Shown: one piece after another, positions 2,776 to 39,374 of the stretch
Numbering within the stretch: position 1 is the stretch's first letter
Layout of the letters: each line of letters opens with the position of its first letter
NCBI GenBank assembly: GCA_046726655.1
Contig: JBKPAZ010000029.1
Coordinates: 1-55,911, forward strand
Source: Chloroflexota bacterium
GTDB lineage: Bacteria; Chloroflexota; Ktedonobacteria; Ktedonobacterales; Ktedonobacteraceae
DNA: 55,911 nt
Direction of reading: 5' to 3'
Made by a program: the position numbers and the translations under genes
Notes under the pieces: model-generated
What the model was told of the DNA's origin: nothing
What the model saw: the letters and a program-made list of their open reading frames with translations, nothing else
Database searches by the model: none

Positions 2776-3585
2776 ATGGAAACAACACACATCCGCCTGT
2801 TTTCTCGTCAACCGCTCTCCGCCTTTGGCAAACTCACCATTGCAGCACTCCTTGGAGGGGCCGTCTCAAGCGGTATACTCGCGCTCGCTATCGGATATCC
2901 AGACAACCTTGCATTACTCATCGTAACCGCGTGTCTGCTGTTAGCTGCGGGACTTGTTGTAACTGGGTTACGCTGGATGCCACTACTGGTAGTACTCCTG
3001 AGCGGCATCCTCCTCTATCAGATATCCAACCAACCCTTTGTCATCTATCACCTGACTAATCCAAAGGGAGGAGGATTCTTCCCCTTTGTGTTGGATATAC
3101 TCATCATTGCATTTGTGCTTGTGACGTTCGGGGCAAGTATCGGTGCAACGGTGCAGAACTACCGCCAGGGTGAGCGAAAAGCTCCCCGTTGGCTTTCATC
3201 TGCCCTGATCGGAGTAGCGGGGATGGTTATTGGCGCAATTTTCATCGCCGCCATCGGGCAAACAAGCGCACCTACAAGTACAACTTACACAAACGGGATG
3301 CCGACTGTACATATGAGTGCAGGTAATTTTAGCCAACCTTCTGTCACTATTCCCAAGGGCTCGAAGCTCTTGCTGGTAGATGATGTGGCAGTGCTCCATA
3401 TTCTTGCAAACGGCAGTTGGGAGAATGGGGTGCCCAAACCGGAGAAAGAGCCAGGCGCACCTACCGTCAATAATGTACAAGTCAATAGCAATAGTGTTGA
3501 GGTTGGACCATTTAGCACAGCGGGAACCTATCACATCTATTGTACGGTCCATCAAGGGATGAACCTGACGGTCATTGTTCAGTAG
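2776..3585 (+). CDS. Polytopic membrane protein with C-terminal cupredoxin (amicyanin-like) domain
   Basis: 269 aa, starting 3 nt after the padR stop. Several hydrophobic helices, then C-terminal GTYHIYCTVHQGMNLTVIV (a Cys-x2-His-x2-Met type-1 copper ligand pattern). Confidence 0.55.
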   Translation: METTHIRLFSRQPLSAFGKLTIAALLGGAVSSGILALAIGYPDNLALLIVTACLLLAAGLVVTGLRWMPLLVVLLSGILLYQISNQPFVIYHLTNPKGGGFFPFVLDILIIAFVLVTFGASIGATVQNYRQGERKAPRWLSSALIGVAGMVIGAIFIAAIGQTSAPTSTTYTNGMPTVHMSAGNFSQPSVTIPKGSKLLLVDDVAVLHILANGSWENGVPKPEKEPGAPTVNNVQVNSNSVEVGPFSTAGTYHIYCTVHQGMNLTVIVQ

Positions 3586-3869
3586 TACGAGTACAGCCGT
3601 CCATCTGAACTCAAGAGAAGAGAACAGCCTGAAATATACAGTAAAAGGAGAAGAGCAGCAAATGACAACCCATTCCCAGAAATTGACCATCACAGTCACG
3701 CAACCGACTACTCTCAGCACAATCATCGCTGTTGTTCCGACCGAGCCAGGCCAGATAGGTGACATGGTTACGCGCAGCAGGCGGCGCGCAGAGGCATTGT
3801 CCCATGCTGCAGGCTTCGTTGGCACCGCCATTCATCACAGGAAGTTGAGGTATCCTCCATCAATGGCGA

Positions 3870-6800
3870 TCATTCCTCAAGTGGATACATTTTCACTACA
3901 GAACCATACATCATTTCCGGTGTCTGGACATAAGCAGAACCGATAGAGAGTTGTTCAATACGTTCAGAAAGGTCTTGTCCTTGACGTCCACGGATGAAAC
4001 CTGAAGCCTTGCGCGACTCAGGATAATTCATGCGGAAGATGACTTTGGTCCCTGCATTACCAAGTACATCCGGGTGAAAGTCTCCTATTCCCTGGCTTGC
4101 AACAATGACCGAGATGCCAAATTTACGTCCCTCTTTCATCAACTTAGGCAAGGTGATATCTTTAGCAAGACGATGAGCTTCATCAAGCACAACTGCTAAC
4201 CGAAGCTGTTTCGCGTATCCCCAACGGAACATATCCTTATAGAGTTTGCGTAATACAAAAGCTCCAGCAGCCATCTGTAGTGTTTCTGCAAACAGATTGT
4301 GTAGATCAATAACTAACCCGCTACGTACAAGAGACAGTAGATCTGCTGATTGTTCTGTTGGACGGAAGAGATCCATCTCCAGTAGTGGGCGGCAACGAGC
4401 AGCAACATTAGTAACATGACGTGTTTGCTCATTTTGCTCAATCCGCTTCAATACATCTTTGAGTGTGGGATAATCCAGCATTTGTAGGGTAGCTATATCA
4501 CTATCATTATTAAACCCGCGCGCCTTATAAGCATCCCTAACTGATGTATAGACAATATCTTTCTGCATCTCACCAAGCCCGGCCACATATGCAAAAATCT
4601 CAGCTACCGCTAATGCATTCGCCATCCATCCTCCCTGTCCACCTTCTCGAGTGCATTCAAAAGGTGAAAATGGAAGCCCTTTCGCAGCGTCAAGCACACC
4701 TGGCTGGATCGCTTTTGTAAAAGTACCCTGTGACTCGGCAAACTGTCCATGAAAGTCCAGGACAAGCGCGGGGACATTTTGCCGCCCTAGTTCAGACAAT
4801 ATACGTGTTATTGTCCATGATTTTCCTTGTCCAGGGATGCCAAGCATGAAAAGATGTGGGCTGCCTTTCACTCCAGGATTCCAGTCCACCTGTTCACCCA
4901 AAGCTTCACCTAGAGGGATAACAACCTCACTGGTATCGATCTGATTTTGAACATCTACAGTCTCGATAATGGAAGTCACCGGTTGCTCATCATGCTGAAG
5001 AGGCTTTGTTTTTTTTCCATGCCCTACAAATTCTCCTTCAGATATATTCGATTGTATCGCATTTGGATCGGGTTGTTGTTCCTCAAAAGCAGCAATGTCT
5101 GTCCAGCTTTGCCCACTCACAGAGCGAGACAGAGTAGGAAAAAGTTCTGTATCATTTTCAAAATCTCTGGCAGTAAGTACAACGACCTTTGCATTGTCAA
5201 GCAATAACGGTTTCCGTGGCTCACTATCCAGACTAACAATGTATCCCTCATAGGTTGGCCTGAAGTCCAGGCCCGTTTTTTCTAATCTTGTGACATGTTC
5301 CAGGAAAGAACCCTCGGTATCGGGATCAAATAAATTGTAGCGGCGAGAACGCTCGAAGTAAAAGCGAAGCACATTTGCCAGATAGGAACGTTGCAGGGCA
5401 CCATCTATACGGTTTTCGTTAAAAAAGCGATTCTTCACCGCTTGCGCTGATCCCTCCATCTGTAAGACCATGGCTTGCGCTAACTCCTCAAGTGGCACAC
5501 GTCCTCTCCTCCATTTTACTTCTATAAAGATCGCATCCACGATGTTTCGTTTCAATGAAACAAGCACAAGATCACAGCGTCTCTCTCCGCGTGTTGGCTT
5601 GCCGGAACTATCCTGCGAGAAGAGGCGAGGATAAATATCTACTGGCACAAGGACAGCCTGCCGCAGCTTTTTATTTCTTTGCAACCATGCAGTAACTACA
5701 CCCAATCCCACTGCCGCCGCCGCACTGGTTGAGGATTCGAGCGCATCTAACGCAAGACGCCCAGAGATCGTTTTCAAGTGATGGAGCAAGCGACTTACAC
5801 TCTGATCAATGCTTGCAAAACCGAGGTCATCCATTGCCTGGCCAAGTAAGGAACCAATCTCTTCATGCCATGCCGTTGTGACCATCATACGATGCCCAAG
5901 CCCCTCCGTAAATTCTGGCGAGTAATCAAGGACATACTTACGAGCAACTTCATTAAGGCCCGGCTGATTGGGAGAATCATAATAGTCAAGAGTGAAAAAA
6001 CGATCCAGGGTAATAACCCAGTTCGTATTTACATGCAGACGTTCCAGCAAGTCGCGCCTTTTTGCTTCAAGACGTACTTCTAGTACTGGTCGAGTATCAG
6101 AAGGACCACCCAGCAGATAACCACCTGCATTCAGCAACGAGGTATGTAATTCCATCAGCGTCTCACTATACCTGGGACCAGCAGGATGTGGCTCCGGTTT
6201 CCTTACCCCTTCTGTAACAATGCGATGTCGCCAGAGCAGCTCCTCATTATTCGATGTGAATTGTGAGATAAAGCGATTGACCAGCCCATAGAGTGAGAAG
6301 CTACTGGTATCGCTCCCTGTTGTATCCAACGATGGAGAGGAGGCAACAATAGAGGGCCGGGTGAAATCCGTCACTACCGCGATATGTGCTTCTGGCGGCG
6401 CGGTTTTCTCTAATTGACTCATTGCGCGGGCGGTCGTTGTCAATCCGGGAAGGAAGTGATCAGAGTTCCTTGCGTAGCGTTGATCGATTTGCTGCTGGCG
6501 TACCTGCTCCAATGCTTGAAACGTACTTTTATGTTCATCTTCGGCATAGGAGATAATCTGAAACGCGGGGAGAGAATACATTTGCTCAAGCTCACCGGCG
6601 GGAGTTTTCTCGGAAAGCATTTTCTTTATGGCTTCTGCAAAGAAGTCGCCCCGGTCAGGGTTGATAAGTGTGGTCACAAGTGTCTCGGCATAAGGATGTA
6701 GCTGATGAAATTTCGCGAGGTGTTCCGCCAATTGATCCGGTTGAATGTCACCGACACCTACCTGGTCAATACCAGTATCTAGAATTACAGCAATATCTCC

Positions 6801-8906
6801 AAAGCGTCGATGGGGATCAGGGACACCCGCCGGAAGAGCTATCCCATGAAAAAAACGCAGATTTTGGAAAAAGGCAAAAGCCTCTGTAGAAGCTGCCGCA
6901 TGGTATGCGAAGGCAGGCACATTTGTCGGTACTAATAAGCGCAAGGCTTGCAGGTCAATGCTCAGTTTACGTTCGCGCAGTGGGTAGTCAAGCAGTTGCT
7001 TCTCCCATTCACGTAGCAGTTGTGTATAGCTGGCAACCCATGCCGCGCGCAATGGATGAGTAGGCAAAATAACAATTGCCTCCTCCACTTGTTCTCCACT
7101 ACCCGTATTCCTGATAAGCAACGAGTCAATCGAGAGCGCATCGCGCAACTCTGACACATCAGCACGATGCGATACGAGTTCATCTATGAGTTCACGATAT
7201 ACCCGGGCATAACGCAGCGCGGAGGCAGCAAGATCAGGCGTCCAATCGACGGCCTCAATGACAGCACGTATATCAGATTGCTTTAGCCGCTTAAAGAACG
7301 TCTCCCGCTCGCGCCAGAATGCCAACCAGAACTCAGAATTTTCCGCTAGCAGGGGATAGGCCGAAAAACTTTGTTTGTCTACGGGCCGCACCTCATCGAC
7401 ATTCAGGATAAAGCAACCGCCTTCACGCGGCTCAGCAAGAACCTGCTTCTCCAAGGCTAAGAGAGTGCTATTCAGCCCAATGTTGAGTATGCGACGATCG
7501 TTCAATCGCAGCCTGAAATACTCAAGGTCTTTATTGATCCATTCCGGCTCTGTTTCGGCAAGTACGGTCTCACGCATATCGACCGCGACTTCGAGCCGAC
7601 CGAAAGCAAGCGTTGGGACAGTTTGTAAACTCTGCCTCGGCGGTTCAGGTAATGAGGAATCAATACCTTTAACCAGGAAAAATTCATGGCTGTTAGCACG
7701 AAAAGTCCCATCCGTTTCCACGTTAATAATCTCACTACCATCCGCACTGAGGGGAGCGATCCTGATACACATGCCGAAGTCAGGTGGCTCGTCAAAATCC
7801 ATATCCAGTTTGATCGTGACAGCTCTCCGACTCCCAGCGACGCTACGCTCATCGATACACTCCTCAAATCCATTTTCGCTGTCGGAGGGTACAATACCAA
7901 CTCGCCAGCGACTCAGTTCCTTTGGTAACACCGGTTCCGTTCTCCAGCGAACAGTGATGGTATCTTTCGCGCCGTAGCGTGCCAGTAAACTGCCCTTTGC
8001 TCCATCTGGCTGCCTGAGATGGCAGTAGGGTTCCACCTCGCCGCTGGCTTTAACAAAAGGTGTTATGCTAACGGAGCGCATATCACTGGGATCAGTTTTG
8101 GGAAATATCCAATGATCAAATGTCAGTGTTTGCTCTTTTGCCAGTTCACGAGACCAGGCGCGCACATCATTCATTGCTCGTCCATGAAAAAACTGAGTCA
8201 AAGCAGTCGTTGTAGACGCATCTACTTTTATACTTTGAATACGTTCGCGCATCGTCGCACCAAGTTTGTTAGGATGCGACAAGCTCAGCACACAATCACG
8301 GTTGACATCGAGTCTTGATACAAATGTATCGCTGCCATCCGCAATGAGTCCAACACGCCAGAGTTCCAGGCCAATCTGTGTGGTTTCCTCTGACTGCATA
8401 CGCCCTAGCAGCTTAAGTGCAAAATCAAGGCGCTGTTCATCGCTCACGTCGAAGAGACCACGCAATCGTGCAAAAACAGCACGGGCTGCAGTCAGAAGTT
8501 CAGGAGAAAGTTGAGCAAGCACACGCTTTAATACGAGCATATGTAAAGTCCGCCCATCGATAAGGGCAAAGGAATTGGCAATTGAACTATAAGCGGCATC
8601 TACGAGATCAGAGGGGATAAATAGACAAAGACGCTCCTGCTTACGATTTCGTATCTCAATCGCCTTGTCTGTCGTAATGAAAATAGTGTCAGCTTTCATG
8701 TGCGCTTCATTTGAAATGAGAATGTGAAATACTACTCCCTGCGCCAGTTGCTGCTGCATAATAAATTGGCAAATGTGCTGCGCTTCAAAACGATCAAGAA
8801 AATCTACCCTGGCACAGTGACCAGGCTCTGTATCTTTTAAACGTTCGATGATTTCATGCGACAGCAATTCTACTTGTAGCATGTCTGTTTGAGATGAATC
8901 TATCAT
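3870..8906 (-). CDS. Giant defence-type protein with a large unassigned N-terminal region, a PD-(D/E)xK-like motif and a C-terminal HerA/FtsK-type P-loop ATPase; DptH (DndH)-like architecture
   Basis: 1678 aa uninterrupted ORF. Walker A LGIPGQGKSWT (K about aa 1362), Walker B LAVVLDEAHRLA, SVIVASQGIGDF. Upstream CDLVLVS-x11-IFIEVKW (D1112, E1129, K1131). Start lies 3 nt after the stop of the preceding gene. Confidence 0.6.
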   Translation of the reverse strand: MIDSSQTDMLQVELLSHEIIERLKDTEPGHCARVDFLDRFEAQHICQFIMQQQLAQGVVFHILISNEAHMKADTIFITTDKAIEIRNRKQERLCLFIPSDLVDAAYSSIANSFALIDGRTLHMLVLKRVLAQLSPELLTAARAVFARLRGLFDVSDEQRLDFALKLLGRMQSEETTQIGLELWRVGLIADGSDTFVSRLDVNRDCVLSLSHPNKLGATMRERIQSIKVDASTTTALTQFFHGRAMNDVRAWSRELAKEQTLTFDHWIFPKTDPSDMRSVSITPFVKASGEVEPYCHLRQPDGAKGSLLARYGAKDTITVRWRTEPVLPKELSRWRVGIVPSDSENGFEECIDERSVAGSRRAVTIKLDMDFDEPPDFGMCIRIAPLSADGSEIINVETDGTFRANSHEFFLVKGIDSSLPEPPRQSLQTVPTLAFGRLEVAVDMRETVLAETEPEWINKDLEYFRLRLNDRRILNIGLNSTLLALEKQVLAEPREGGCFILNVDEVRPVDKQSFSAYPLLAENSEFWLAFWRERETFFKRLKQSDIRAVIEAVDWTPDLAASALRYARVYRELIDELVSHRADVSELRDALSIDSLLIRNTGSGEQVEEAIVILPTHPLRAAWVASYTQLLREWEKQLLDYPLRERKLSIDLQALRLLVPTNVPAFAYHAAASTEAFAFFQNLRFFHGIALPAGVPDPHRRFGDIAVILDTGIDQVGVGDIQPDQLAEHLAKFHQLHPYAETLVTTLINPDRGDFFAEAIKKMLSEKTPAGELEQMYSLPAFQIISYAEDEHKSTFQALEQVRQQQIDQRYARNSDHFLPGLTTTARAMSQLEKTAPPEAHIAVVTDFTRPSIVASSPSLDTTGSDTSSFSLYGLVNRFISQFTSNNEELLWRHRIVTEGVRKPEPHPAGPRYSETLMELHTSLLNAGGYLLGGPSDTRPVLEVRLEAKRRDLLERLHVNTNWVITLDRFFTLDYYDSPNQPGLNEVARKYVLDYSPEFTEGLGHRMMVTTAWHEEIGSLLGQAMDDLGFASIDQSVSRLLHHLKTISGRLALDALESSTSAAAAVGLGVVTAWLQRNKKLRQAVLVPVDIYPRLFSQDSSGKPTRGERRCDLVLVSLKRNIVDAIFIEVKWRRGRVPLEELAQAMVLQMEGSAQAVKNRFFNENRIDGALQRSYLANVLRFYFERSRRYNLFDPDTEGSFLEHVTRLEKTGLDFRPTYEGYIVSLDSEPRKPLLLDNAKVVVLTARDFENDTELFPTLSRSVSGQSWTDIAAFEEQQPDPNAIQSNISEGEFVGHGKKTKPLQHDEQPVTSIIETVDVQNQIDTSEVVIPLGEALGEQVDWNPGVKGSPHLFMLGIPGQGKSWTITRILSELGRQNVPALVLDFHGQFAESQGTFTKAIQPGVLDAAKGLPFSPFECTREGGQGGWMANALAVAEIFAYVAGLGEMQKDIVYTSVRDAYKARGFNNDSDIATLQMLDYPTLKDVLKRIEQNEQTRHVTNVAARCRPLLEMDLFRPTEQSADLLSLVRSGLVIDLHNLFAETLQMAAGAFVLRKLYKDMFRWGYAKQLRLAVVLDEAHRLAKDITLPKLMKEGRKFGISVIVASQGIGDFHPDVLGNAGTKVIFRMNYPESRKASGFIRGRQGQDLSERIEQLSIGSAYVQTPEMMYGSVVKMYPLEE

Positions 8907-8909
8907 GAC

Positions 8910-10616
8910 TCAGACCTCCACCTTCATCATCTCTTTGCCCGCATATGGAGGATGCAAGCGTTGGACCGTAAAATCATCTGAAAGATCACGGAAAATTCCC
9001 ATCTGTCGCAGGCGACGCAGCATGGCACGCAGGTTTTCACGCGCTGCAGCAATATATTCCGCGCCTTCAAATAGTGATGGTGGTCTGTCAATCAGTATGC
9101 CAAAACGCTTCTCCAAGAATTGCAAGAAATCCTGTAAGCGAATTGGTTGCAATTCTTGACCGGTCTGCTCTTGATTGGTCGGCGCAGAAAGTCGTACCGC
9201 TGCTAACTGTACAAACACCGCTAGCAGGTCATTCGTCGGCGCATAGCGCCAGGACTTACGACTGAGCGTAGTACCACGTAGCACTCCTTGCGTTTTCTTG
9301 ATCCCTCCTACACCCGAATACCACTGAATAAAATTCTTAACAGCACCTTCGCGCTGAGCCTCTATCAGGAGGCTTACTACCCGCTCCACATCATCCTCAG
9401 TTGTTCCAACGATTTCATCTAACCAACTAAGAGCCTCCGGGTCATCCTCCTCGCCTTCATTAGTGTTCATTCTGCGAATTTCATCTTCATCATTACGAGC
9501 AGAGGCGGCAATATCTCTACCGAGGATGGGATCATTACGTAACTGGAGCAAGCCCTGCAAATATTCTGCCCCTGAAATATCCGGTCGCAATACGTTCTCA
9601 ACGATGGGTTTGTAGCGCGCGTTGCGTTTTAGTTTCTCCATATAACTGTCTAGCTGACGGAGAAGCAAGTTAGATGACAAGAATTGTTGATAGGTTTCAA
9701 TGTCACGCCGCACACAGGCTTTTGCCATCTCCTGACTATATCCGGCTGAGGATTCTGTAAAATCCAGGTAGAGTTGCGGAGGAGAGATCTTTGTGCTATC
9801 GCACATTGCGATAGGCAAATTATTAGGGTACCGTACCAGTTCATTCACGGCATTGACGAGTTTAAGTGTGTAATTGAACAGCTCAAAATTAATGAGAACA
9901 AGCAAATGATGAGTAAACGCCTGTGTCGGCATCGTCGTATAGTATTCAAAAAGATAACGCAAGAGATCAATCGCAAGCTCTTTAGCAAGCGCGGGGCAGG
10001 GACTAGAAACGTTCTTTTCTCTATTGATCCCCGGCCTGGTATTTTGAAATCCATCTAAAAAAGCAATAGAAAGACGCGTGAGCGTATCTAATCTGGCTTC
10101 TCCATCATATGTACCACCTAAATCAGGAATGCTGCCAATTATCACTCCACGTCCAAAAACCCTTTTCACAAAACTTCGTAACGCATCGTCTGCCCCCAGA
10201 TACTCGCGCAACGCCTGATAAATAAATGTATCAGCGCTCCTTTGACGGCTCCCCTGAGCAGGGAAGCCTGGTTTGTGTGCAAGAATCGTATAAGGAACAA
10301 TAGATGTGATTTGCTCATTAACATGAGAACGACCTACACTACCTGTCGTAATCAGTGTTGTTCGCACAAGGCGTTCTATTACTTTTCGACCTTCAGCATC
10401 ATTAAATCCCTCAAGATCTGAATGGTTAGATAAGGCATCAACGAATTTGGCAATAGTTTTAGGGTCATTCGTCTGCCTCGCTTTTCCCCTCCCTTGAGAT
10501 AAAATGGTGAAGAAAAGAGAAGGGAGGAATAGGTCAATATCAAAATCATTCATATTTATTGTAGAGATACGTGGAAATTTTACCCCAACGATATCCTTTG
10601 GTAGCTTGATCTTCAT
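8910..10616 (-). CDS. Middle subunit of the three-gene operon, with no recognisable catalytic motif; DptG-like by position only
   Basis: 568 aa ORF. ATG lies 15 nt after the stop of the upstream gene, with AGGAAGGA as SD. Stop lies 3 nt before the next ATG. Confidence 0.4.
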   Translation of the reverse strand: MKIKLPKDIVGVKFPRISTINMNDFDIDLFLPSLFFTILSQGRGKARQTNDPKTIAKFVDALSNHSDLEGFNDAEGRKVIERLVRTTLITTGSVGRSHVNEQITSIVPYTILAHKPGFPAQGSRQRSADTFIYQALREYLGADDALRSFVKRVFGRGVIIGSIPDLGGTYDGEARLDTLTRLSIAFLDGFQNTRPGINREKNVSSPCPALAKELAIDLLRYLFEYYTTMPTQAFTHHLLVLINFELFNYTLKLVNAVNELVRYPNNLPIAMCDSTKISPPQLYLDFTESSAGYSQEMAKACVRRDIETYQQFLSSNLLLRQLDSYMEKLKRNARYKPIVENVLRPDISGAEYLQGLLQLRNDPILGRDIAASARNDEDEIRRMNTNEGEEDDPEALSWLDEIVGTTEDDVERVVSLLIEAQREGAVKNFIQWYSGVGGIKKTQGVLRGTTLSRKSWRYAPTNDLLAVFVQLAAVRLSAPTNQEQTGQELQPIRLQDFLQFLEKRFGILIDRPPSLFEGAEYIAAARENLRAMLRRLRQMGIFRDLSDDFTVQRLHPPYAGKEMMKVEV

Positions 10617-10631
10617 ATGATTTCCTTCCTG

Positions 10632-13600
10632 CTATTGCACCCTCACTCGCACAATTTTATTATCACGTTGGGTAACAAGATGAACGCGGCGCTGATTTTC
10701 AATTAAAACCAGGTCACGAGTTTCACGTAGCAGTAGAACATCTTTGAAGAGTTTCAGGTCTTCAAGTAGTGGTTTAAATTCTGGTGCTGTAGGTTGCAAT
10801 CCATCGGCCATTCGCATAAGTAGCTCGAACAGGTCAATGGTAATCTCAAGGCGTGGTAGACCAGAATAATGCTTTAATACGACCATCTCAGGCAGCCTCT
10901 CGACCATAGAAATACCCTGTGGATGCTCTACCAGGAACTCAAATTCCTCCAGGGGAAGTTGTTTGAGGACAACCAACTGCTGATCAATTGAGGCGCTGAC
11001 CTTCACACTGAGTTTTCCTTGGGGCACATCTTCTATGACACCATCCGAACGCAGAATGCCGAGGATTACTACTTCGCGGAGTTTTCGCACCTCCACATCA
11101 TCAAGACGTCCATCAAGCAGCATCATGAAGAGTTTAGAGTATTCGTATGGGAGCAATGCCAACCAGCGCACTTTCGGTATAACAGAACCATCCTGAGCAG
11201 CCACAACAGGTTTACCAGCATCAAAGTACAAACGCCGTTTGAATGCTGCCATCCACGTAGGTTCGTTCTCAAAGCGTTGAAAGGGGAGATCTTTTTTATC
11301 GGCAAAGAGAAGGCTGCGCTGTTCAGCATCCCTCGCAGTTTGATGAAAATGCAGGAAGCGATCAAGGTGCGGATGCGGGAAACGCGCGGGGTCGAACGGC
11401 ATTAGATCAGCCAGCAATTCATCATGTTGTTCAATCGGAGCAAATGCAGATTGCCAGTAAGCAAAATTTATGAGCGATGCGCCTGCTTCTGCTCCATGTC
11501 GCGCAGCATGCACTTGTTCACAGCTCCAGTTACCAGTAATCAGATAAGCAAGAGCCGAACGTAGATCACGCATGGTAGTATGCCGCTGTCGTCGTAGATG
11601 CGAGAGCAAGAAGAGAAACTCAAGGCGTTGTATGACTCTTGGTTTTCGTAGTTCGAGAGCGTTATTTCTCAAGGGACAGACCACCTGGGCCGCGCAATCC
11701 TCACAAATCTTCCATTTGTCGGCTGCGACCAGACTTTGCAACACTTGCCGGAAAACAGAATCTCCCTCCGCATCCGGTAAACTTACAAAGGCCCGCTTTT
11801 TCAGGTCTATGACCCATACGTCTAGCTCTTCTACATCACTGGCATCTCTTGCTTTCTCTAGCTGCACTGATAGCCAGGGGAAACGATCTTGATGACGTAT
11901 AAAATAGTCAGCGAGACGCCCATCGTTGATAGCGATCAGTACGGTCAAATTGACAGCAGGTTCATTGCTCCCTTCCAACCCCTGCAGTTTCCCGGTGAGT
12001 TGTTGGTCCGCACTTAGACTTTGATGTGATTCTGATGCATCGTAGCAACTGCGATAGTGGTGTCCATCCCATTCCCATTCCCATCCACTCGAATCTTGTT
12101 GAATAACCGTTGCCTGTTGTTCCAGCAACTTTTGCTGCACCTTTTCCAGGAAGGCCGTTTTTCCATCCCCTGGGTTTCCACAGAGGAATACCACTTTTGG
12201 CCTCAGATCAAAAATGGCAGGTAATAACTGCTCATCCAGCGCGGTAAGTACATAGGTTTCCCGCACAAATTCTGAATCCAATCCCCGGTTGTTCTTATTA
12301 CCTATTTCACTATTGCGATAGAGACTACGTACATCATTCACCCAGGAGTTGGTATACTCTCGCAAAGCTTCTGTCTGTAGTGGTTCTTCGACAGCCAGAA
12401 GAGCCGTTTGGAGTTCTTGCCGCATTTGAGCAACAGTAGCTGGACGCTCAGTTGGATTATTTGAGACCGCTCTTAACAATACTGCCGCTATTCTACGCAT
12501 CTTTACATCTATAAACTGCTCCAGCGGGATAAGGCTCCGTTGAACGCCTTCTGTAATACTAAAGGGCATATAGCCAAAAAGCGATTTAAATAAAACTACG
12601 CCAATTGCATAACGATCACACGTCAAAGGAAAAGCAGAAGAAGGAGAAGCCGAAAAGGTCTCCGGGGGGAGATACAGCGGAGTCCCAGCAGCCTGGCCTG
12701 GAGTGCCCTGCCGAATAGCAAAGCCAAAATCGATTAGTACCGGACGATTGTCAGCCTCACGGAGAATAATATTTGCCGGTTTAATATCCCGGTGAAGCAG
12801 TTGTTTTTCTTCGAGTGCTTCTACCGCATTCAATAAACCCTGTGCCAATGACCACCAGCGTTCTAACGGCCAGGGAAACTCCATCTCAATCTGTTGCAAT
12901 GTCGGACCAGCAATATACTCCATTTTGACATGCACATCATTTTGTGGCGGATAAATATCAAAAATACGCGGCAGATATCTGCTACTGATGTTTCTCATAG
13001 CGTTAAACTCAGCGGCAGCCTGCTGCAACACCTCTGAAGGACTGATGTACTGTTTCAGAGCAAATAAGCCGAGTGACTCAAAGTCATTATCACTCGCAAG
13101 ATAGGTGTATGCTGTTGTTCCACGTCCAAGCAAACGATGTACTCTGTAACGCTTATCAAGCAATCTTCCCTCGACCGTGTCGGCTTGTATTTCTATGCGC
13201 AGACGACGAGCAAGATCATTAAGGCGTGTAGAAATTTCTTTTGCTGAAGGAGGCGTTGTTCCCTTTGCAGGAGTGACGACCTGTCTGAAAAGCGCGCCGA
13301 GTTCGTTCGCCAGTTCGGCAGAGAGAAACGAAGTCCAACGTGGTTGTTGGGGAAAGATTACATCACTTTCCACATTGGCACGAATATTGGAGAGCGAAAC
13401 ACCTGATAGACGTTCCAAAAAGACCAAGGCCAGGCTATATGTATCTGTTTCGGCAGTGGCATAGCCATAGCCAATAGCAAGCTCTAAAGCAGCATACGGG
13501 TCTTCGATAGAAAGAGTATCGAGTGATGGAGCAATAGAGTTTGTGCCAACACGAGCGGCGTAAAAATTTGTAAAGACAACTTTGGGTGGTTGAATACTCT

Positions 13601-13949
13601 GAACATAAATCGTGTCTGGCCCAATAGCTCGGTGCAAAACGTTATGAGTATGGATTTGATCTAGAGCCTTAAAACAAGCAGCGGTCAATAATAGTTCTTG
13701 TACAAATTCCTCGCGCGTCTCTGGCTGGGGATAGATACTCAATGGTTTTCCGGATGGAGGCATAATCGGCAAGACGAGAAAATCATCAGACCACCTGAAA
13801 GGAATATTGACCAGAGGTACAAAACCAGTTGAAAATAATTTTTGCAAGGCCATACATTCATGCATATAAAAATCATAAAGCTTCTGTGAGTCAAGCGGGT
13901 CTTTCGTTAGATCATATACCATCAATTGGAGCGTCTTGTCCGGGCCCAA
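10632..13949 (-). CDS. Tandem pseudokinase plus Hanks-type Ser/Thr kinase fused to a C-terminal P-loop NTPase (DptF/DndF-like module)
   Basis: 1105 aa. Kinase: LGRGTTAYTY (G-loop, about aa 274), FALKQY, LLHRDIKPANIIL (D388), LIDFGFA, GTPLYLPPE. N-terminal degenerate copy: LHRAIGPDTIYV, TNFYAARV. C-terminal half: Walker A FLCGNPGDGKTAF (K597) and C749-x2-C752-x5-C758. The annotated start is TTG; see the upstream ORF at 13922-14032. Confidence 0.7.
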   Translation of the reverse strand: MGPDKTLQLMVYDLTKDPLDSQKLYDFYMHECMALQKLFSTGFVPLVNIPFRWSDDFLVLPIMPPSGKPLSIYPQPETREEFVQELLLTAACFKALDQIHTHNVLHRAIGPDTIYVQSIQPPKVVFTNFYAARVGTNSIAPSLDTLSIEDPYAALELAIGYGYATAETDTYSLALVFLERLSGVSLSNIRANVESDVIFPQQPRWTSFLSAELANELGALFRQVVTPAKGTTPPSAKEISTRLNDLARRLRIEIQADTVEGRLLDKRYRVHRLLGRGTTAYTYLASDNDFESLGLFALKQYISPSEVLQQAAAEFNAMRNISSRYLPRIFDIYPPQNDVHVKMEYIAGPTLQQIEMEFPWPLERWWSLAQGLLNAVEALEEKQLLHRDIKPANIILREADNRPVLIDFGFAIRQGTPGQAAGTPLYLPPETFSASPSSAFPLTCDRYAIGVVLFKSLFGYMPFSITEGVQRSLIPLEQFIDVKMRRIAAVLLRAVSNNPTERPATVAQMRQELQTALLAVEEPLQTEALREYTNSWVNDVRSLYRNSEIGNKNNRGLDSEFVRETYVLTALDEQLLPAIFDLRPKVVFLCGNPGDGKTAFLEKVQQKLLEQQATVIQQDSSGWEWEWDGHHYRSCYDASESHQSLSADQQLTGKLQGLEGSNEPAVNLTVLIAINDGRLADYFIRHQDRFPWLSVQLEKARDASDVEELDVWVIDLKKRAFVSLPDAEGDSVFRQVLQSLVAADKWKICEDCAAQVVCPLRNNALELRKPRVIQRLEFLFLLSHLRRQRHTTMRDLRSALAYLITGNWSCEQVHAARHGAEAGASLINFAYWQSAFAPIEQHDELLADLMPFDPARFPHPHLDRFLHFHQTARDAEQRSLLFADKKDLPFQRFENEPTWMAAFKRRLYFDAGKPVVAAQDGSVIPKVRWLALLPYEYSKLFMMLLDGRLDDVEVRKLREVVILGILRSDGVIEDVPQGKLSVKVSASIDQQLVVLKQLPLEEFEFLVEHPQGISMVERLPEMVVLKHYSGLPRLEITIDLFELLMRMADGLQPTAPEFKPLLEDLKLFKDVLLLRETRDLVLIENQRRVHLVTQRDNKIVRVRVQ

Positions 13950-14032
13950 CTTGCGGGCAGTTGTTGTAGAGCTTTTGCAGCTCTGCGCTCTCCTTCAGTT
14001 GCAAATGGCCCCGCGCTAACCAACTGAGCCAT
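13922..14032 (-). CDS. 36-codon ORF with strong SD overlapping the kinase gene start in another frame (leader peptide, or true N-terminus separated by a frameshift)
   Basis: GAAGGAGAG-N5-ATG at 14032. Translation by hand: MAQLVSAGPFATEGERRAAKALQQLPASWARTRRSN*. The kinase ORF is in the -1 frame relative to it and is open from codon 13 of this ORF. Confidence 0.3.
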   Translation of the reverse strand: MAQLVSAGPFATEGERRAAKALQQLPASWARTRRSN

Positions 14033-15039
14033 GGAATCTCTCCTTCTCGACAGAGGCTAAATATGTACAGAAATCCTGGCATATGTCTTATAGTTCGCTC
14101 ATTTTCTAGAGCATCAAATGAATTTTTATAAAAAATTCAGCTATACAACGAGCAGAACTATATCATATTCAGCACTTTCATTCAAGCGTAAAGAGGATAG
14201 TGGGATAGTTGCCATATGTCCAATTCTATGAGTTGGATTTAGCATATCTCGTTGTACTGGATGCCCAAAAACATCTGAATCCTTTGAGAGGAAACTGTTG
14301 GAGATCTACTGAAGAGCTAATATGATTCCAAATATTTTATTGTTTTAGGATTGTCGGCTATCAGTGCGGTTAAACCCTCCTCGTTTCGGTATGAAAACGG
14401 TCTATTTTCTGCAAAACAATAGACTCACTAATCTTCAGGACCATCGGATAAGTGACAAAAGATGTATACTTTTCAGAGAGGCCACACCATTACGAAAGCC
14501 GTAGAGGAAGAAATAACCGATGCGACTCGAAAGCTTCATACAACAGCATGCCCACAGAGATGCACAGGCCCTCTTTGCCGAGCATCAACAAGACCAATCC
14601 GTCCGAGAAGAGCCAGAACGTATACGCAGCCTCGCAAAATTCGAGGCCAACCAGTTCTACCAGCACGGATTTGTCCTTCTATTCCTGAAAGCCTCGCTTC
14701 TGGGCAATGAGCAGGAAGTTACAAACCTTTACACACAAACCTTTATCAAGACATACACAGGCCTCAAGAATGAAGAATACATATCCCAACCCTGATTAAG
14801 ATAGCTCGACTTGTGACATCACTTTAGAAAACAGATGTAACATACAAAAAACATTGTGTACACAAGCAACCAATGCTTGTGCTTAAAAATACCGTGCACG
14901 ATGAGCGGTATGTGAGCGGTATTTTCGATAATGAAGAGAAAAATGAAGAGCAATACCGTTGAGATAATGAGTCGAATGTTCTTGTTGTGGTTATCTTCAT
15001 CGATCAGAATCGGTTCTATCATGAGAAGCAGATCACTGA

Positions 15040-16248
15040 TTACTTTGAGGAACCTCTACGCGAGAGATTCTCGACCATCCAGCGAGCTACCGTGGCATTG
15101 ATCTCCCCAGGCACAGGTTGCGGTCCGTGTGGGAGACCCCTGTGATGAGCGGCCAGGTATGCGAGCGATTGAGCCTGTAAAGCGAAACCTAGATCCATCG
15201 TCTCTATTGGATTGCCTCCGCCACCTGCGAGGTTAAGCATCTCACCCTGGGCGAGCAGCGTAATACGCCTTCCATCTTCAAGTGTGAAAAGTTCGACCCA
15301 CTCACGGAAGCGTTCAACGGTAACCGCCCTCCGTCTTAGTTCAGCGAGGTCAATCTCCCATGAAAAATGACCTGCATTCGCAAGAATGGCCCCATCGGGC
15401 AAGCGGTTAAAGGACTCAGCGGGAATGGCTCCTGGTCTTCCTGTCGCAGTGAAGAATACTTCGCCAATGCCTATCGCTTCCTCAAGTGTTGTGACACTCA
15501 TCCCATCCAGTACCGCCTCAAGCGCCCGGATTGGGTCTAATTCAACGACCGTCACCTGACCACCTAACCTGCGCAGACAGCGTGCAATACCGCGCCCAAC
15601 TGAGCCGTAGCCAAAGACCACGAACCGCTTGGATTGTACTAACAAGTTCGTCTCACGCATAAAGCCCTCGACGATCGTTGGTCCAACCCCATGCTCATTC
15701 TCCATAATGAGCTTGAGCGGACTATCATTGATCACGATAATAGGGAATGATAGTGCGCTGCGCAGTTCTCCCCGCAAGCGGTTGGCACCGGTCGTTGTCT
15801 CCTCGGTACCGGCGATGACATGGCCTCGACCTGGATGAGTAAGATAGGTCGCGACGAGGTCAGCTCCGTTATCCAGGAAGAGATGTGGATCATACGACAA
15901 TACCTGACCTATATTCTCTTGATGTCTGGTGCTATCGTCCTCCTGTTGTCCAAAGACAATGACCCCGGTATGCTTTAGAGCGGCTGCAACATCGTTCTTC
16001 GTCGTACCTGGACTGCCGGTAATGACAACTTTAGCCCCTCCTGCTTGCAGGACAGAACAAAGCACTGCCGTCTTAGGTTCGACATGTAAGCACATGCCAA
16101 TTGTAAGCCCGGCGAAAGGCTTCGTCTCGCTAAACTGTTCCCGCAGCCTCTGAAGGAGTCGCTGATGGAGTTCGGCCCAGCGAATCTTCTGAAAGCCTTG
16201 CGCCACTAGATGATGATCAGGAATGCCCTGATCTTGTTTATCGATCAT
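15040..16248 (-). CDS. ahcY: Adenosylhomocysteinase (short, about 400-aa type)
   Basis: 402 aa. NAD-binding VVFGYGSVGRGIARCLRRLGGQVTVVELDPIRALEAVLDGM and GHFSWEIDL, matching SAH hydrolase family patterns. Confidence 0.7.
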   Translation of the reverse strand: MIDKQDQGIPDHHLVAQGFQKIRWAELHQRLLQRLREQFSETKPFAGLTIGMCLHVEPKTAVLCSVLQAGGAKVVITGSPGTTKNDVAAALKHTGVIVFGQQEDDSTRHQENIGQVLSYDPHLFLDNGADLVATYLTHPGRGHVIAGTEETTTGANRLRGELRSALSFPIIVINDSPLKLIMENEHGVGPTIVEGFMRETNLLVQSKRFVVFGYGSVGRGIARCLRRLGGQVTVVELDPIRALEAVLDGMSVTTLEEAIGIGEVFFTATGRPGAIPAESFNRLPDGAILANAGHFSWEIDLAELRRRAVTVERFREWVELFTLEDGRRITLLAQGEMLNLAGGGGNPIETMDLGFALQAQSLAYLAAHHRGLPHGPQPVPGEINATVARWMVENLSRRGSSK

Positions 16249-22892: not shown

Positions 22893-24911
22893 CTATACTT
22901 CAGGCCCTGGTAGGTGAGAGACAAGTATATTTTGATTCAACATATTCATCGGCACAATGCCAAATTCAGAAAGCGCTTGCATCTCCAGGTCACTGCTAAA
23001 GAACTGCATATAGGCCTGGAATGCTGCTGAACCATCGCCTTGCGTATAGAAATGCTCAATACTCCAAAACGCATAGGTGCCCTGAAGTAATGTTTGCGTA
23101 CCGGGCGCTACGCCATCGATGGCTAGTATCTTTACACCTGTTTCCTGCGCCACCGCCAGGGGTACATAGCTAATCGCTCCCTGTGTCTGAGAAACTGCCT
23201 GCGCGACCGAAGCAGGCGAGTCCTGCTTGATTCTGATCCCTGCTACATGCTCTGTCACACCATTCAGCACAAATGTTTGAAAAATTGTGGTGATACTGGC
23301 TGCCGTAGGAGGAAGAATGACCGTGATAGCTTCGTCAGAGCCACCCACCTGGGCCCAATTCGTGATTTGCCTCTGGTAGATCTCCTGTATCTCGGCGCTG
23401 CTCAATCCACTCACCTCTACGTCAGGGCTAACAATCAGTGCGTACAGTAATGCTCCCATCGGGTGATCGGTCAGGTTTCGCACGGGGGTAGCAGTTAGGT
23501 CAAAGCCTGCGACATCAATACGGCTATGCTGCAATTTGTTCAGGCTAGCACGGCTTCCATCTGCTTGTAATGAGATTGTCAATCCTGGACAGTGGTTCGC
23601 ATAATCAGTATCGATTTGTTGTAGCAGGGGCTGCAAATTCAGAGAACTATCTAGTGAAAGTGTTCCAGGCGTACAAACGACGGGAGGAGCCCCAGTAGCT
23701 GTGGGAACAACAGTGCCATTTATTATCGGCGTTTGTGATTGGCCTCTTGTGGGCGTGATGTGAACTTGCGGTATAGAGTTGCTGCCTTCTTTAGATGGGA
23801 TTGAAGGTGTTACACCACCTGAAGCAGTCGTAGGGGTAGGTTTGCCCAATTTCGTTCCCACGACGCTTCCCTGACTGTCGCTATGAAACGGGAGACCAGG
23901 AATATCTTGTAGATGCAGTGGCAAGGACGAGAAGAAAAAAAGGGTACCCACCAGTCCAAATAAAACCAGTAAGATGGAGAGCAAAGAGAGGGCACGGCTC
24001 CATGTAAAAGACATTCGTCGTCGAGAACGTATCTCAATGCGGCGTTGAGGTTTGACAGAAACGACAGGTGAGTTATCAGAGGCAACGGCTGCCAGCAGCG
24101 CTTCAGCTAGAGCACTCGCGTTTGGGAAGCGCGCCTCTGGGCTTTTAGCGAGAGCCACGCGTACGACAAGCTCCACTGACTCTGGGAGATCGGGGCGAAA
24201 TTGACGCAATGAGGGAATAGCTTCATTTGCATGTTTCAGAGCAATCTCGCCCTTAGTCTCACCATCGTAAGGAAGCTGTCCCGTCAACAAGCGATAGAGG
24301 AGCACACCTAATGCATAAATATCACTGGCAGGAGAAAGCATGCCAACCACCTGCTCTGGGGCTGTATATGCCTGATTTCCCTCTTCAATTTGCGCTACTA
24401 AGGGATCGAATTCCTGGTGGATTCGCTTCATACTAAAGTTGGTGAGAAGGATATGCTGATCACTTTGTACCAGGACACTTGATGGTTGGATATTTCCATG
24501 TACGATATGTTGTTCATGCACGTATTGTAGCGCTGCGCATAGTTGAGTAATACAATGCACAACCAGGGGCATCTGTATAAAGCGTTCCTGGTTTTCAGAC
24601 TTCTCTAGAACCTGCTCGACCGTCTCTGCCTCTGCAAACTCTGTTACACTAAAGAGCAAGTCATCACCTGCCCCAAACTCGAGCAGAGGCTGTATATGCT
24701 CATGATGGCAATGCCATACTTTCTCCACTTCTGAGGCAAAGTGCTCCTGGAATGCGGTAGGATCAGGAAACGGTGGTCGAAATAAGCGCAACACTACGTC
24801 AGACCCGCCTCGAGTTGTGGGACGTGCGCGATACGTTTCCACCATTCCTTCTCGTCCCAAACACTCAAGCAAAAAATAATTGCCTACCATCACCCCAGCG
24901 AGTTCCACCAT
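22893..24911 (-). CDS. Membrane-spanning pseudokinase fused to a PstS-like periplasmic binding domain
   Basis: 672 aa. The kinase fold has degenerate catalytic residues (VVLRLF, HGNIQPSS, TNFS). One TM helix (ALSLLSILLVLFGLVGTLFFF). C-terminal PBP-like region (ITNWAQVGGSDEAITVI, GAISYVP, YAFW). Confidence 0.7.
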   Translation of the reverse strand: MVELAGVMVGNYFLLECLGREGMVETYRARPTTRGGSDVVLRLFRPPFPDPTAFQEHFASEVEKVWHCHHEHIQPLLEFGAGDDLLFSVTEFAEAETVEQVLEKSENQERFIQMPLVVHCITQLCAALQYVHEQHIVHGNIQPSSVLVQSDQHILLTNFSMKRIHQEFDPLVAQIEEGNQAYTAPEQVVGMLSPASDIYALGVLLYRLLTGQLPYDGETKGEIALKHANEAIPSLRQFRPDLPESVELVVRVALAKSPEARFPNASALAEALLAAVASDNSPVVSVKPQRRIEIRSRRRMSFTWSRALSLLSILLVLFGLVGTLFFFSSLPLHLQDIPGLPFHSDSQGSVVGTKLGKPTPTTASGGVTPSIPSKEGSNSIPQVHITPTRGQSQTPIINGTVVPTATGAPPVVCTPGTLSLDSSLNLQPLLQQIDTDYANHCPGLTISLQADGSRASLNKLQHSRIDVAGFDLTATPVRNLTDHPMGALLYALIVSPDVEVSGLSSAEIQEIYQRQITNWAQVGGSDEAITVILPPTAASITTIFQTFVLNGVTEHVAGIRIKQDSPASVAQAVSQTQGAISYVPLAVAQETGVKILAIDGVAPGTQTLLQGTYAFWSIEHFYTQGDGSAAFQAYMQFFSSDLEMQALSEFGIVPMNMLNQNILVSHLPGPEV

Positions 24912-24913
24912 GA

Positions 24914-26461: not shown

Positions 26462-26737
26462 GCGACACCCCACAATGGTACGTCTCGGCTGGTAGTTTTG
26501 CAGGCGCAATAGACCGAACCCAACAAAACCTGGTATCGGTAATACATCGAACTAAACGAGGAGAGATTCTCTTTTCGGAGATTTAACAGACTAAGACGAC
26601 AAAAAGAGGCATTTTCTGAATAAGTTCATCGAGGCGAAACTAAAAGTACTATGCAAGCCACAACACCTCTCGCTCCATCTTCACCATCACAGCCGGCACT
26701 TTTTCCGACAATAGACACGCCGCCAGGAGATACCAGA

Positions 26738-39009: not shown

Positions 39010-39336
39010 ATACACAATTGAATACGGAAAAGCATCGAACAGGAAGAGTATACGACCCGCCACGGTCATAGAGAGTCGGGACTGGTGAAAACCGGCACCA
39101 GGCAGTCGTAGAATGGGCCTGGGAGCAAAGAGCGAACGTTCTTACATGAACTAGTAGTACTCATTCGGAACGTCCCCCGTTATCGAGGACAGGATATCCT
39201 CTGCATATCAAAGTGTATCCGGCAAAGAGGGATTAGCTGCAATTCTCGGAGAGTTTAGCTAATCTGAATCAGGGTGGCACCACGAAAGCGTTGCGTTACG
39301 CCTCTCGTCCCTATTATGGGAAGAGTGGCGTTTTTT
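39010..39336 (+). promoter_or_regulatory. T-box riboswitch leader with tryptophan (UGG) specifier
   Basis: Stem I elements in canonical order: AG bulge AGAGAG (39069-39076), distal loop CUGGUGAAAA (39082-39091), S-turn plus specifier GUAGAA-UGG-G (UGG at 39114-39116). T-box sequence AGGGUGGCACCACG (39271-39284), then a terminator hairpin plus U6. Confidence 0.8.
39299..39336 (+). terminator. T-box-controlled intrinsic terminator
   Basis: CGCCUCUCGUCCC / GGGAAGAGUGGCG stem (13 positions, 2 mismatches) followed by UUUUUU (39331-39336), 39 nt before the trpS ATG. Confidence 0.65.
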
Positions 39337-39374
39337 ATTGTACTTTTTTTCTTACATGTCGATGGAGGTATATC

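Follow-up and report, generated by a model that had tools for sequence, protein, structure and literature searches.

A MAD6-MAD7-MAD8-like, kinase-fused DndFGH triad with a NERD deletion in its first gene in a member of the Ktedonobacteraceae

The window (the whole 55,911-nucleotide stretch of DNA analysed here, from a member of the Ktedonobacteraceae, class Ktedonobacteria, phylum Chloroflexota) carries three co-directional minus-strand genes, A, B and C. An earlier note on this DNA had described them as an orphan, kinase-coupled relative of the DptFGH/DndFGH restriction module. Renewed ORF calling recovered all three genes with the sizes and spacing claimed there, the intergenic gaps being 15 nt (A-B) and 3 nt (B-C). 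The locus is made up as follows.

14122..14204, minus strand: conserved upstream block, 86% identical to the region 5' of the intact homologue in the related locus L009
13922..14032, minus strand: original start region of gene A, reduced to a remnant ORF of 36 aa (Shine-Dalgarno sequence and ATG 14032; ORF listing)
13932..13946, minus strand: deletion junction in gene A (blastn against L009; junction compared with L009, L012 and L026)
10632..13949, minus strand: gene A, 1105 aa from a TTG start (ORF call)
8910..10616, minus strand: gene B, 568 aa (ORF call)
3870..8906, minus strand: gene C, 1678 aa (ORF call)

Shine-Dalgarno-like sequences lie 5' of gene B (AGGAAGGAAA) and gene C (GAAGGTGGAGG). 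The proposal that each gene has its own ribosome-binding site holds for these two. It does not hold for gene A if the 1105-aa protein is what is expressed, since the internal starts have none. A promoter-like site (TTGAAT-17-TATAGT with TG, 14185..14157), recognised by consensus match alone, lies within the upstream block. The neighbours of the triad in the window are housekeeping genes with no defence island, and neither tRNA genes nor integrases marking an island were found. The absence of dnd genes and of a methyltransferase from the window was confirmed: the scanned ORFs (plausible genes of at least 120 aa in the 55.9 kb) gave no match to a DNA methyltransferase, dnd or ssp. The sole SAM-related gene of the window encodes an adenosylhomocysteinase (15040..16248); a functional link between it and the triad was rejected, as it recurs in no related locus and lies 1.09 kb away. 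We also rejected a fourth operon gene, the 211-aa minus-strand ORF at 3196..3831, which belongs to no family, lacks homologues in all related loci and runs antisense to a gene (2776..3585) that plausibly encodes a membrane cupredoxin-like protein. Two further Ser/Thr kinases are encoded at 22893..26509.

The interval given in the earlier note ends at 14032 and overlooks a frameshifting deletion in gene A. Its closest homologue, P0002, is an intact protein of 1313 aa with 87% identity. The first 29 residues of P0002 match 14032..13946 (93% identity), whereas residues 212-1313 align from 13940 onward in a different frame, and blastn against L009 shows that 541 nt are absent at the DNA level between 13946 and 13932. 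This makes gene A a NERD-less allele, truncated at its N-terminus. The deletion takes out codons 30-211 or so, which belong to the NERD domain that nearly all relatives have, and a TGG(G) microhomology is present at both breakpoints. The ATG at 14032, preceded by a strong Shine-Dalgarno sequence (GAAGGAGAG), is the ancestral start, and the 1105-aa ORF is read in another frame; the first 29 aa of the remnant ORF correspond to the NERD N-terminus. In principle, the missing 541 nt could be an assembly error.

We considered recurrent NERD loss as a pattern among the relatives of gene A and rejected it. A split between NERD and kinase in locus L008 comes down to a 1-nt shift in an A-run and the assembly, to judge from its contig names, is long-read, so that the split is probably a sequencing error; most short homologues are cut by contig ends. 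One copy in another species (L032) is clearly decayed, having neither NERD nor pseudokinase and a gene C that is both broken and interrupted.

The deletion raises the question of whether the window locus is a dead remnant, in which the frameshift has abolished subunit A of a system that needs all three subunits and decay is under way. We consider this quite possible, though somewhat short of an even chance. The ancestral ATG now yields only the 36-aa peptide, no Shine-Dalgarno sequence precedes the internal starts TTG 13949 and ATG 13922, the L032 copy provides an example of decay elsewhere, and mad6, like mad7 and mad8, is needed for phage resistance in the P. aeruginosa MADS system (10.1101/2023.03.30.534895). 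On the other hand, the 1102 remaining codons of gene A contain zero gaps and zero stops relative to P0002, and B and C have kept their full length, so either the deletion happened recently or the cell still uses the truncated protein. Also speaking against a dead locus are the conserved upstream promoter, Shine-Dalgarno sequence and ATG, and the stop codon of the remnant ORF (TGA, 13924..13922), which overlaps the in-frame ATG 13922 as TGATG and so allows reinitiation.

What remains of gene A retains both its pseudokinase and its kinase; the NERD domain is what the deletion has removed. Its parts are these.

10632..13949, minus strand: gene A remainder, MAD6-like or kinase-fused DndF-like (profile matches; collinear with bona fide MAD6)
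13949..13200, minus strand: pseudokinase, about aa 1-250 (degenerate HRA at 106)
13169..12360, minus strand: active-type Ser/Thr kinase, aa 261-530 (K299, D388, D407)
12245..10635, minus strand: DndF/SspF-like P-loop and C-terminal domain, aa 569-1105 (Walker A K597; hhhhN675-D)

The kinase has HRD at 386-388 (with D388) and DFG at 407, and Pfam Pkinase matches gene A at 1.7e-32. The P-loop motif reported earlier, GNPGDGKT, was found at aa 591-598. It is followed by a Walker B in which the Asp is replaced by Asn (hhhhNDGR; here LIAIN675-DGR), a hallmark of DndF, and all 98 full-length homologues have both Walker A and the Asn-type Walker B. The earlier suggestion of a kinase fused to an F-like protein stands. 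Against PADLOC models, the C-terminal 561 aa match SspF at 7.5e-31 (9.9e-24 over nearly the full model) and DndF at 1.8e-8. The NCBIfam MAD6 model (NF047741, cut-off 460 bits) gives gene A 270.7 bits over model positions 217-611 only, and P0002 448.1 bits over the whole model (1-611), just below the cut-off; P0002 also aligns collinearly with a genuine MAD6 of 1391 aa (E=9e-70). The DptF model (TIGR03238, cut-off 50 bits) reaches 16.3 bits with gene A, 19.4 with its C-terminal domain and 21.7 with P0002, and the PglW model (NF033442) reaches 91.5 bits with gene A (3e-26), far under its cut-off of 990.

Gene B gives the clearest family assignment. It matches the curated MAD7 model NF047733 over all of its positions (1-529 of 529) with 475.4 bits, above the cut-off of 410, and its homologues carry Pfam PF26611 (MAD7); in PADLOC it matches mad7 at 6.7e-22 and SspG weakly (4.4e-4 over 96 aa). 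Gene B is an intact MAD7, the middle subunit said to resemble DndG/DptG. MAD7 is a small family of patchy occurrence, accounting for 339 of 1.84 billion cluster representatives. DndG has a triple winged-helix (triple-wHTH) fold related to PDB 7EXX, and Maestri et al. matched Pseudomonas Mad7 to 7EXX (DndG) with an HHpred probability of 99.5%. Our searches of PDB sequences with gene B (phmmer and two profile searches) returned no match, and its AF2 model (pLDDT 71.5, N-terminal half poor) had no Foldseek match in the PDB at E<0.3; neither the DndG fold nor any other fold was recovered from the PDB for gene B. The published link between MAD7 and DndG was thus not reproduced by sequence, profile or Foldseek searches.

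Gene C is intact and MAD8- or DndH-like, with the following features.

3870..8906, minus strand: putative MAD8/DndH-like effector gene (NCBIfam MAD8; PADLOC DndH and mad8)
8822..8226, minus strand: MAD8 N-terminal domain, aa 29-227 (NCBIfam MAD8)
around 5657..5502, minus strand: predicted PD-(D/E)xK nuclease motif, D1112...E1129-x-K1131 (motif and conservation)
5006..3873, minus strand: HerA/FtsK ATPase, aa 1301-1678 (K1362, D1575/E1576, Q1605)

All of the motifs previously claimed for gene C were located (GIPGQGKS at 1356, VVLDEAH at 1572, ASQ at 1603 and D1112-x16-E1129-x-K1131), and D1112, E1129 and K1131 are invariant or nearly so in a 44-sequence alignment. The C-terminal layout of DndH is an active PD-(D/E)xK nuclease with a HerA/FtsK ATPase behind it that has a Gln sensor-1. 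Gene C shows this layout, its C-terminus matches PADLOC DndH at 5.4e-36, and PDB searches find HerA (4D2I) and the DptH structure 7ES4 (4e-5); the label DptH is attached to many gene C homologues in JGI annotation. The PADLOC DndH models have no match in aa 1-1300. Compared with a bona fide MAD8 of 1858 aa, gene C is collinear over aa 29-1196 and the ATPase (BLASTP E=7e-51). The NCBIfam MAD8 model NF047742 scores 51.9 bits on aa 29-227, below its cut-off of 175. An AF2 model of aa 1-1200 (pLDDT 83), a multi-domain structure of 1200 aa, gave weak domain-level matches in Foldseek, to Brr2 SF2 helicases (2e-5), FN3-type beta-sandwiches and Rossmann methyltransferases (about 1e-2). The N-terminal array of DndH comprises an inactive SF2 C-domain, an HTH, two beta-sandwiches, a TRD and an inactive DAM methylase with a nested TRD, and the matches are of the kinds expected from such an array but too weak to confirm the full set of eight DndH domains.

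Among the closest known systems is MADS (Maestri et al., Cell Host Microbe 2024). The gene order mad6-mad7-mad8 is the same; from end to end, A runs collinear with a MAD6 of 1391 aa (NERD-pseudokinase-kinase-P-loop) and C with a MAD8 of 1858 aa. However, identity is only 23-26%, proteins A and C of the window fall under the curated cut-offs, the window copy has its NERD deleted, and the triad comes without mad1-5 (HTH, N6-MTase, AAA/OLD-like ATPase, DUF4276 and specificity subunit). The MAD6 and MAD8 used for this comparison come from a Piscinibacter plasmid operon, in which all eight genes pass the curated MADS1-8 cut-offs. Since the operon is complete (mad1-8) and its MAD6 and MAD8 are collinear with A and C, a fused kinase is what MADS normally has. 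The kinase extension, regarded earlier as a departure from known systems, is the normal MAD6 architecture of kinase and P-loop.

The triad also has a published counterpart on the Dnd side. Rakesh, Aravind and Krishnan (NAR 2024, PMC10853773) described NERD with an inactive and an active S/T/Y kinase fused to DndF. They also described DndFGH as standing alone, uncoupled from dndABCDE, and both points were restated in 2026 (PMC12839542). That work, which is purely computational, shares with the window the domain grammar of F with its Asn-type Walker B, the three-gene operon, the nuclease and C-terminal HerA/FtsK ATPase with Gln sensor-1 in H, and the decoupling from dndABCDE. The PT-dependent DptFGH/DndFGH modules of Salmonella and E. 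coli B7A have the same layout of F (P-loop), G and an H of about 1700 aa that joins a nuclease to a HerA-like ATPase; the window triad differs in lacking dndABCDE, in the kinase fused to F and in staying under the DptF cut-off. Likeness to DptFGH, as the earlier note had proposed it, therefore holds at the level of the superfamily, by the SspF, DndF and DndH matches given above, and not for the Dpt families themselves: beyond the DptF shortfall, the DptG and DptH models matched no triad protein. SspFGH (Wang et al., mBio 2021, PMC8092258) is likewise a three-gene cassette with an FtsK-like C-terminus in H, and its SspF profile matches the P-loop half of gene A better than any other; it differs in that SspG matches weakly and SspH not at all, SspF has no kinase and the window has no sspABCD. 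PglW of BREX type 2 shares the NERD-pseudokinase-kinase N-terminal half and differs in its C-terminal half, and the window contains neither PglZ nor PglX.

Judged by its sequence, then, the triad is a real anti-phage module of a described kind, MAD6-MAD7-MAD8 or kinase-fused stand-alone DndFGH. With gene B above the MAD7 cut-off, A and C collinear with MAD6 and MAD8, and stand-alone DndFGH already in print, the system can no longer be called undescribed. We hold it to be very probable that the locus is a stand-alone MAD6-MAD7-MAD8 module whose gene A, in the window, is NERD-less through deletion. Protection against phage with epigenetic escape has been shown only for the eight-gene P. aeruginosa system (10.1101/2023.03.30.534895).

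The relatives of the locus bear on whether the module stands alone. Triads without mad1-5 were found by tblastn in 21 of 21 GTDB Ktedonobacteria species loci retrieved, and MAD1-5 had no tblastn match in the window or in the 21 related loci. The genome scan used a close MAD7 alignment whose reach is Ktedonobacteria only; a diverse 56-sequence alignment was too divergent. Kinase fusion, which the earlier note had wished to see surveyed, is present in homologues too, the intact gene A homologues of about 1313 aa carrying NERD (PF08378) and Pkinase. Triad sites differ between genomes and are sometimes beside BREX, ThsA-Macro, HEPN, CHAT or NACHT genes.

Although these triads lack a modification gene of their own, the triad could still be the restriction half of a split system, its partner enzyme (a MADS-type MTase, PglX, dnd/ssp or an orphan methylase) being encoded elsewhere in the genome. 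We consider this possible, though less likely than not. Canonical MADS couples MAD6-8 to MAD2 (N6-methyltransferase) and MAD5 (specificity subunit), and DndFGH and SspFGH, when left unrestrained, are toxic because they damage the DNA of hosts that lack the modification (PMC8092258). In Ktedonobacter sp. SOSP1-85, moreover, the triad lies directly behind pglX-pglZ-brxL of a type 1 BREX. This is the only such case: the other 20 of the 21 species loci have no adjacent modification gene (at the level of the locus), nor has any other of the nine contexts (seven distinct genomic settings) an adjacent MTase. Linkage to dndABCDE is often absent in the published survey, where DndFGH components occur in 1798 taxa but the full set of eight dnd genes in no more than 316 (PMC10853773).

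A role outside defence, such as that of a kinase-regulated DNA translocase acting in chromosome segregation during the mycelial, sporulating life cycle, appears highly improbable. The triad does occur across the whole class, frequently surrounded by housekeeping genes, one of its parts is a HerA/FtsK ATPase, and Ktedonobacteria genomes are rich in Ser/Thr kinases, the two additional ones of the window included. Yet its proteins have full-length homology to experimentally validated defence genes and conserve a restriction-type nuclease motif, and decayed and deleted copies occur. Its genomic position varies, none of the flanking genes of the window recurring at any other triad locus, and the small, patchy MAD7 family also speaks against such a role.

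For the module in its stand-alone MAD6-MAD7-MAD8 form, homology to the described systems suggests a division of labour. Subunit A would act as sensor and regulator through its nucleotide-binding P-loop, Asn-type Walker B and fast-evolving C-terminal domain, and would carry Ser/Thr kinase and NERD nuclease domains as co-effectors. Subunit B may be a DNA-binding adaptor. Subunit C would bind DNA via its long N-terminal domain array, translocate it by the HerA/FtsK ATPase and cut it by the PD-(D/E)xK nuclease. From the window gene A, a protein of 1096-1105 aa could be made only from the internal starts, perhaps by termination-reinitiation at TGATG. Since only starts without a Shine-Dalgarno sequence are left, the window system would be either NERD-less and weakly expressed or inactivated, with B and C intact. 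The phosphorylation-coupled, modification-independent mode proposed in the earlier note is a hypothesis. A bolder proposal is that the Ktedonobacterial triad is self-sufficient and modification-independent, the kinase and P-loop sensing infection and licensing the nuclease-translocase, and that the NERD-less window allele functions via TGATG reinitiation. We think this unlikely; if it were true, the NERD nuclease would be a dispensable back-up effector, perhaps shed as costly.

New here are the conservation of a mad1-5-free triad across the 21 Ktedonobacteria species loci retrieved and the 541-nt NERD deletion in gene A of the window. For annotation, the curated MAD6 and MAD8 models miss the Ktedonobacterial clade, narrowly or clearly, and gene A of this contig should be flagged as disrupted. 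For the biology of the class, Ktedonobacteria offer natural test cases of how a triad without its own modification enzyme discriminates self from non-self, and K. racemifer, Dictyobacter alpinus and Thermogemmatispora are cultured carriers of the triad.

An ORF listing of the window bears out three minus-strand genes of the sizes and spacings previously reported, with intergenic gaps of 15 nt (A/B) and 3 nt (B/C):

10632..13949, minus strand: gene A, 1105 aa, TTG start
8910..10616, minus strand: gene B, 568 aa
3870..8906, minus strand: gene C, 1678 aa

Genes B and C are full length, and every motif quoted in the earlier note was found at the residues it named in genes A and C. Gene A contains GNPGDGKT at 591, HRD at 386-388 and DFG at 407, while its first kinase-like domain has a degenerate HRA. 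Gene C contains GIPGQGKS at 1356, VVLDEAH, ASQ and the nuclease motif D1112-x16-E1129-x-K1131, whose D, E and K are invariant or nearly so across 44 aligned homologues.

The proposed likeness to DndFGH/DptFGH holds at superfamily level, through matches to SspF, DndF, HerA and the DptH fragment 7ES4. For gene A, profile matches of the C-terminal 561 aa are to SspF at 7.5e-31 and to DndF at 1.8e-8, and another SspF model is covered nearly end to end (9.9e-24). Gene A also shares the DndF hallmark described by Rakesh et al. (PMC10853773), in which Asn replaces the Walker B Asp; the corresponding hhhhNDGR motif is present in 98 of 98 full-length homologues. Against the curated DptF model, the gene A family scores 16-22 bits, below the cut-off of 50. 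The gene C ATPase matches both HerA and 7ES4, and many gene C homologues carry the JGI label DptH. Foldseek matches for gene C residues 1-1200 (AF2 pLDDT 83) were all weak, to an SF2 helicase, FN3-type beta-sandwiches and Rossmann methyltransferases, which are the kinds expected for DndH. Searches with gene B against the PDB by sequence and by profile, and with Foldseek, gave no match. Maestri et al. report that Mad7 resembles DndG (7EXX) and Mad8 resembles HerA.

A more specific identity comes from the methylation-associated defence system (MADS). Gene B matches the NCBI curated MAD7 model over its full length (475 bits, cut-off 410). The N-terminus of gene C matches MAD8 and its C-terminus matches the PADLOC DndH and mad8 models, and the N-terminus of gene A matches the MAD6 model at positions 217-611 only, as expected given the deletion in this gene. 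A tblastn search of plasmids with gene B recovered an operon of Piscinibacter gummiphilus in the order HTH, N6-methylase, AAA ATPase, two hypotheticals, kinase (1391 aa), 557 aa and 1858 aa, in which all eight proteins exceed the curated MADS1-8 cut-offs. The Piscinibacter MAD6 aligns with P0002, the intact 1313-aa closest relative of gene A, across the kinase, the P-loop region and the remainder as far as the C-terminus (E=9e-70), and their NERD N-termini also align. Its MAD8 is collinear with gene C across residues 29-1196 and the ATPase (E=7e-51). The kinase extension of gene A, earlier taken as a departure from known systems, is therefore canonical MAD6 architecture. It had looked like a departure because the curated models NF047741 (MAD6) and NF047742 (MAD8) stop after 612 and 200 N-terminal positions, whereas the proteins themselves reach 1391 and 1858 aa in a bona fide MADS. 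As a consequence, the DndF-like and DndH-like parts stay out of sight in annotation and the Ktedonobacterial clade goes undetected; intact P0002 itself scores 448 against a cut-off of 460, 12 bits short.

Nor can the operon be called undescribed, as had been suggested. DndFGH is commonly decoupled from dndABCDE, with components in 1798 taxa and the complete eight-gene set in only 316, and DndF may carry an N-terminal NERD and tandem inactive/active S/T/Y kinase domains (PMC10853773, NAR 2024). A 2026 paper (PMC12839542) restates both the decoupling and the NERD/kinase-fused DndF and likens the arrangement to PglW. The MADS authors, who also note incomplete operons, require MAD6-8 as the core in their detection model. 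Based on these three sources, an orphan, kinase-coupled DndFGH-like operon is of a described kind. Its sequence identifies the locus as a divergent new MADS MAD6-8, or kinase-fused stand-alone DndFGH, with a disrupted gene A allele.

This disruption is what the earlier, largely correct, observation overlooked. The closest gene A homologues, ~1313 aa long, have an N-terminal NERD domain (PF08378), which is missing from the window protein. By tblastn, residues 1-29 of P0002 (87% identity) map to 14032..13946 in one frame, and residues 212-1313 map from 13940 in another, 1102 residues without a gap. At the DNA level, 554 nt in the 5' part of gene A at L009, a related locus with an intact homologue, correspond to 13 nt in the window, a net loss of 541 nt that shifts the reading frame. 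A TGG(G) microhomology is common to both breakpoints. The upstream promoter-like block, SD and ATG are conserved; this ATG, at 14032, where the stretch named in the earlier note ends, has a strong SD but does not share the reading frame of the 1105-aa ORF, and it now opens only a 36-aa peptide. The TGA of this remnant overlaps an ATG at 13922 (TGATG) that is in frame with the rest of gene A. On inspection, no SD precedes either ATG 13922 or TTG 13949.

Among 21 species-level relatives, NERD is kept in 17 of the 18 loci holding the gene A 5' end. The exception (L032; CAVSHN010000016.1, 7483-18023) is a decayed triad copy, with gene A lacking both NERD and pseudokinase, and gene C split across several frames, with a ~1.4 kb insert between residues 464 and 481. 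At another locus (L008, 9351-10001), a 1-nt shift within a run of A leads to NERD and kinase being called as separate ORFs. This is probably a sequencing error and not a genuine split, as the way the contig is named points to a long-read assembly.

Every close homologue belongs to Ktedonobacteria, with Ktedonobacter, Dictyobacter, Thermogemmatispora and many soil MAGs represented. MAD7 is a small family, matched at E<=1e-3 by 339 of 1.84 billion cluster representatives. In nine fetched contexts, representing seven distinct genomic settings, the order is always A-B-C, with A of 1303-1325 aa where intact, B (MAD7) of 546-570 aa and C of 1680-1751 aa where complete. MAD1-5 matches are absent from all 21 GTDB species loci, and no methyltransferase adjoins the triad in the nine contexts except in Ktedonobacter sp. 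SOSP1-85 (L004/L014, BNJI01000001.1), where pglX-pglZ-brxL of type 1 BREX precede it; this pairing may reflect functional coupling. The distance from brxL to the triad start is 374 nt, on the same strand. Neighbours otherwise vary between genomes, being housekeeping genes in some and defence-like in D. alpinus (ThsA-Macro, HEPN/DUF499, CHAT) and K. racemifer (TerY/vWA/PP2C/kinase with large helicases).

A scan of the plausible genes of the window confirmed the absence of DNA methyltransferase, dnd and ssp genes, and found no BREX genes. No flanking gene recurs in any related locus. Both flanks are housekeeping. One has a sigma factor, PadR and a membrane cupredoxin-like protein; the other has genes for adenosylhomocysteinase, an esterase, a TPP-enzyme, a cyclase, enoyl-CoA hydratase, a MutS-like ATPase and two Ser/Thr kinases, with the trp operon further out:

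2776-3585, plus strand: membrane-protein-like ORF, 269 aa, cupredoxin-like C-terminus (YHIYCTVHQGM), no Pfam match
3196-3831, minus strand: overlapping ORF just downstream of gene C, 211 aa, probably spurious
15040..16248, minus strand: adenosylhomocysteinase, co-directional with the triad
20607-22481, plus strand: MutS-related ATPase, 624 aa
22893-26509, minus strand: two tandem Ser/Thr kinase genes
39026-39315, plus strand: T-box leader (Rfam RF00230, 99.4 bits, gathering score 93)

Between the triad and the adenosylhomocysteinase gene lies a 1.0-kb AT-rich stretch (14033-15039, ~43% GC) with no credible ORF, in which conservation with a related locus is limited to the ~200 nt nearest the triad (promoter, leader). 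In the 624-aa protein, similarity to MutS/MutS2 is confined to residues ~370-618, which match the C-terminal ATPase part, and is far below the cut-offs. One tandem kinase (672 aa) ends in a PstS-family phosphate-binding domain (TIGR02136, 8e-32, 412-655), an unusual kinase-sensor fusion. The T-box leader immediately precedes a Trp-tRNA synthetase gene (39291..40424) and runs into its start; this gene is followed to 47892 by trpE, trpG, trpD, trpC/F, trpB, a B3/4-domain protein and trpA.

Judged by its residues, subunit A has an intact Walker A, an Asn-type Walker B and an active-type kinase (K299, D388, D407) behind a pseudokinase, and subunit C combines a conserved PD-(D/E)xK motif with a HerA/FtsK ATPase whose sensor-1 residue is Gln. 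By analogy with the DndFGH, SspFGH and MADS literature, the three proteins would form one complex in which A senses infection, via nucleotides or invader proteins, and carries kinase and NERD as back-up effectors, B binds DNA, and C translocates and cuts it. Self-DNA could be spared either by a modification enzyme encoded in trans or by sensing that does not depend on modification. In the window, the most that could be produced of subunit A is a NERD-less protein translated from a poor start site, and the system may therefore be weakened or dead.
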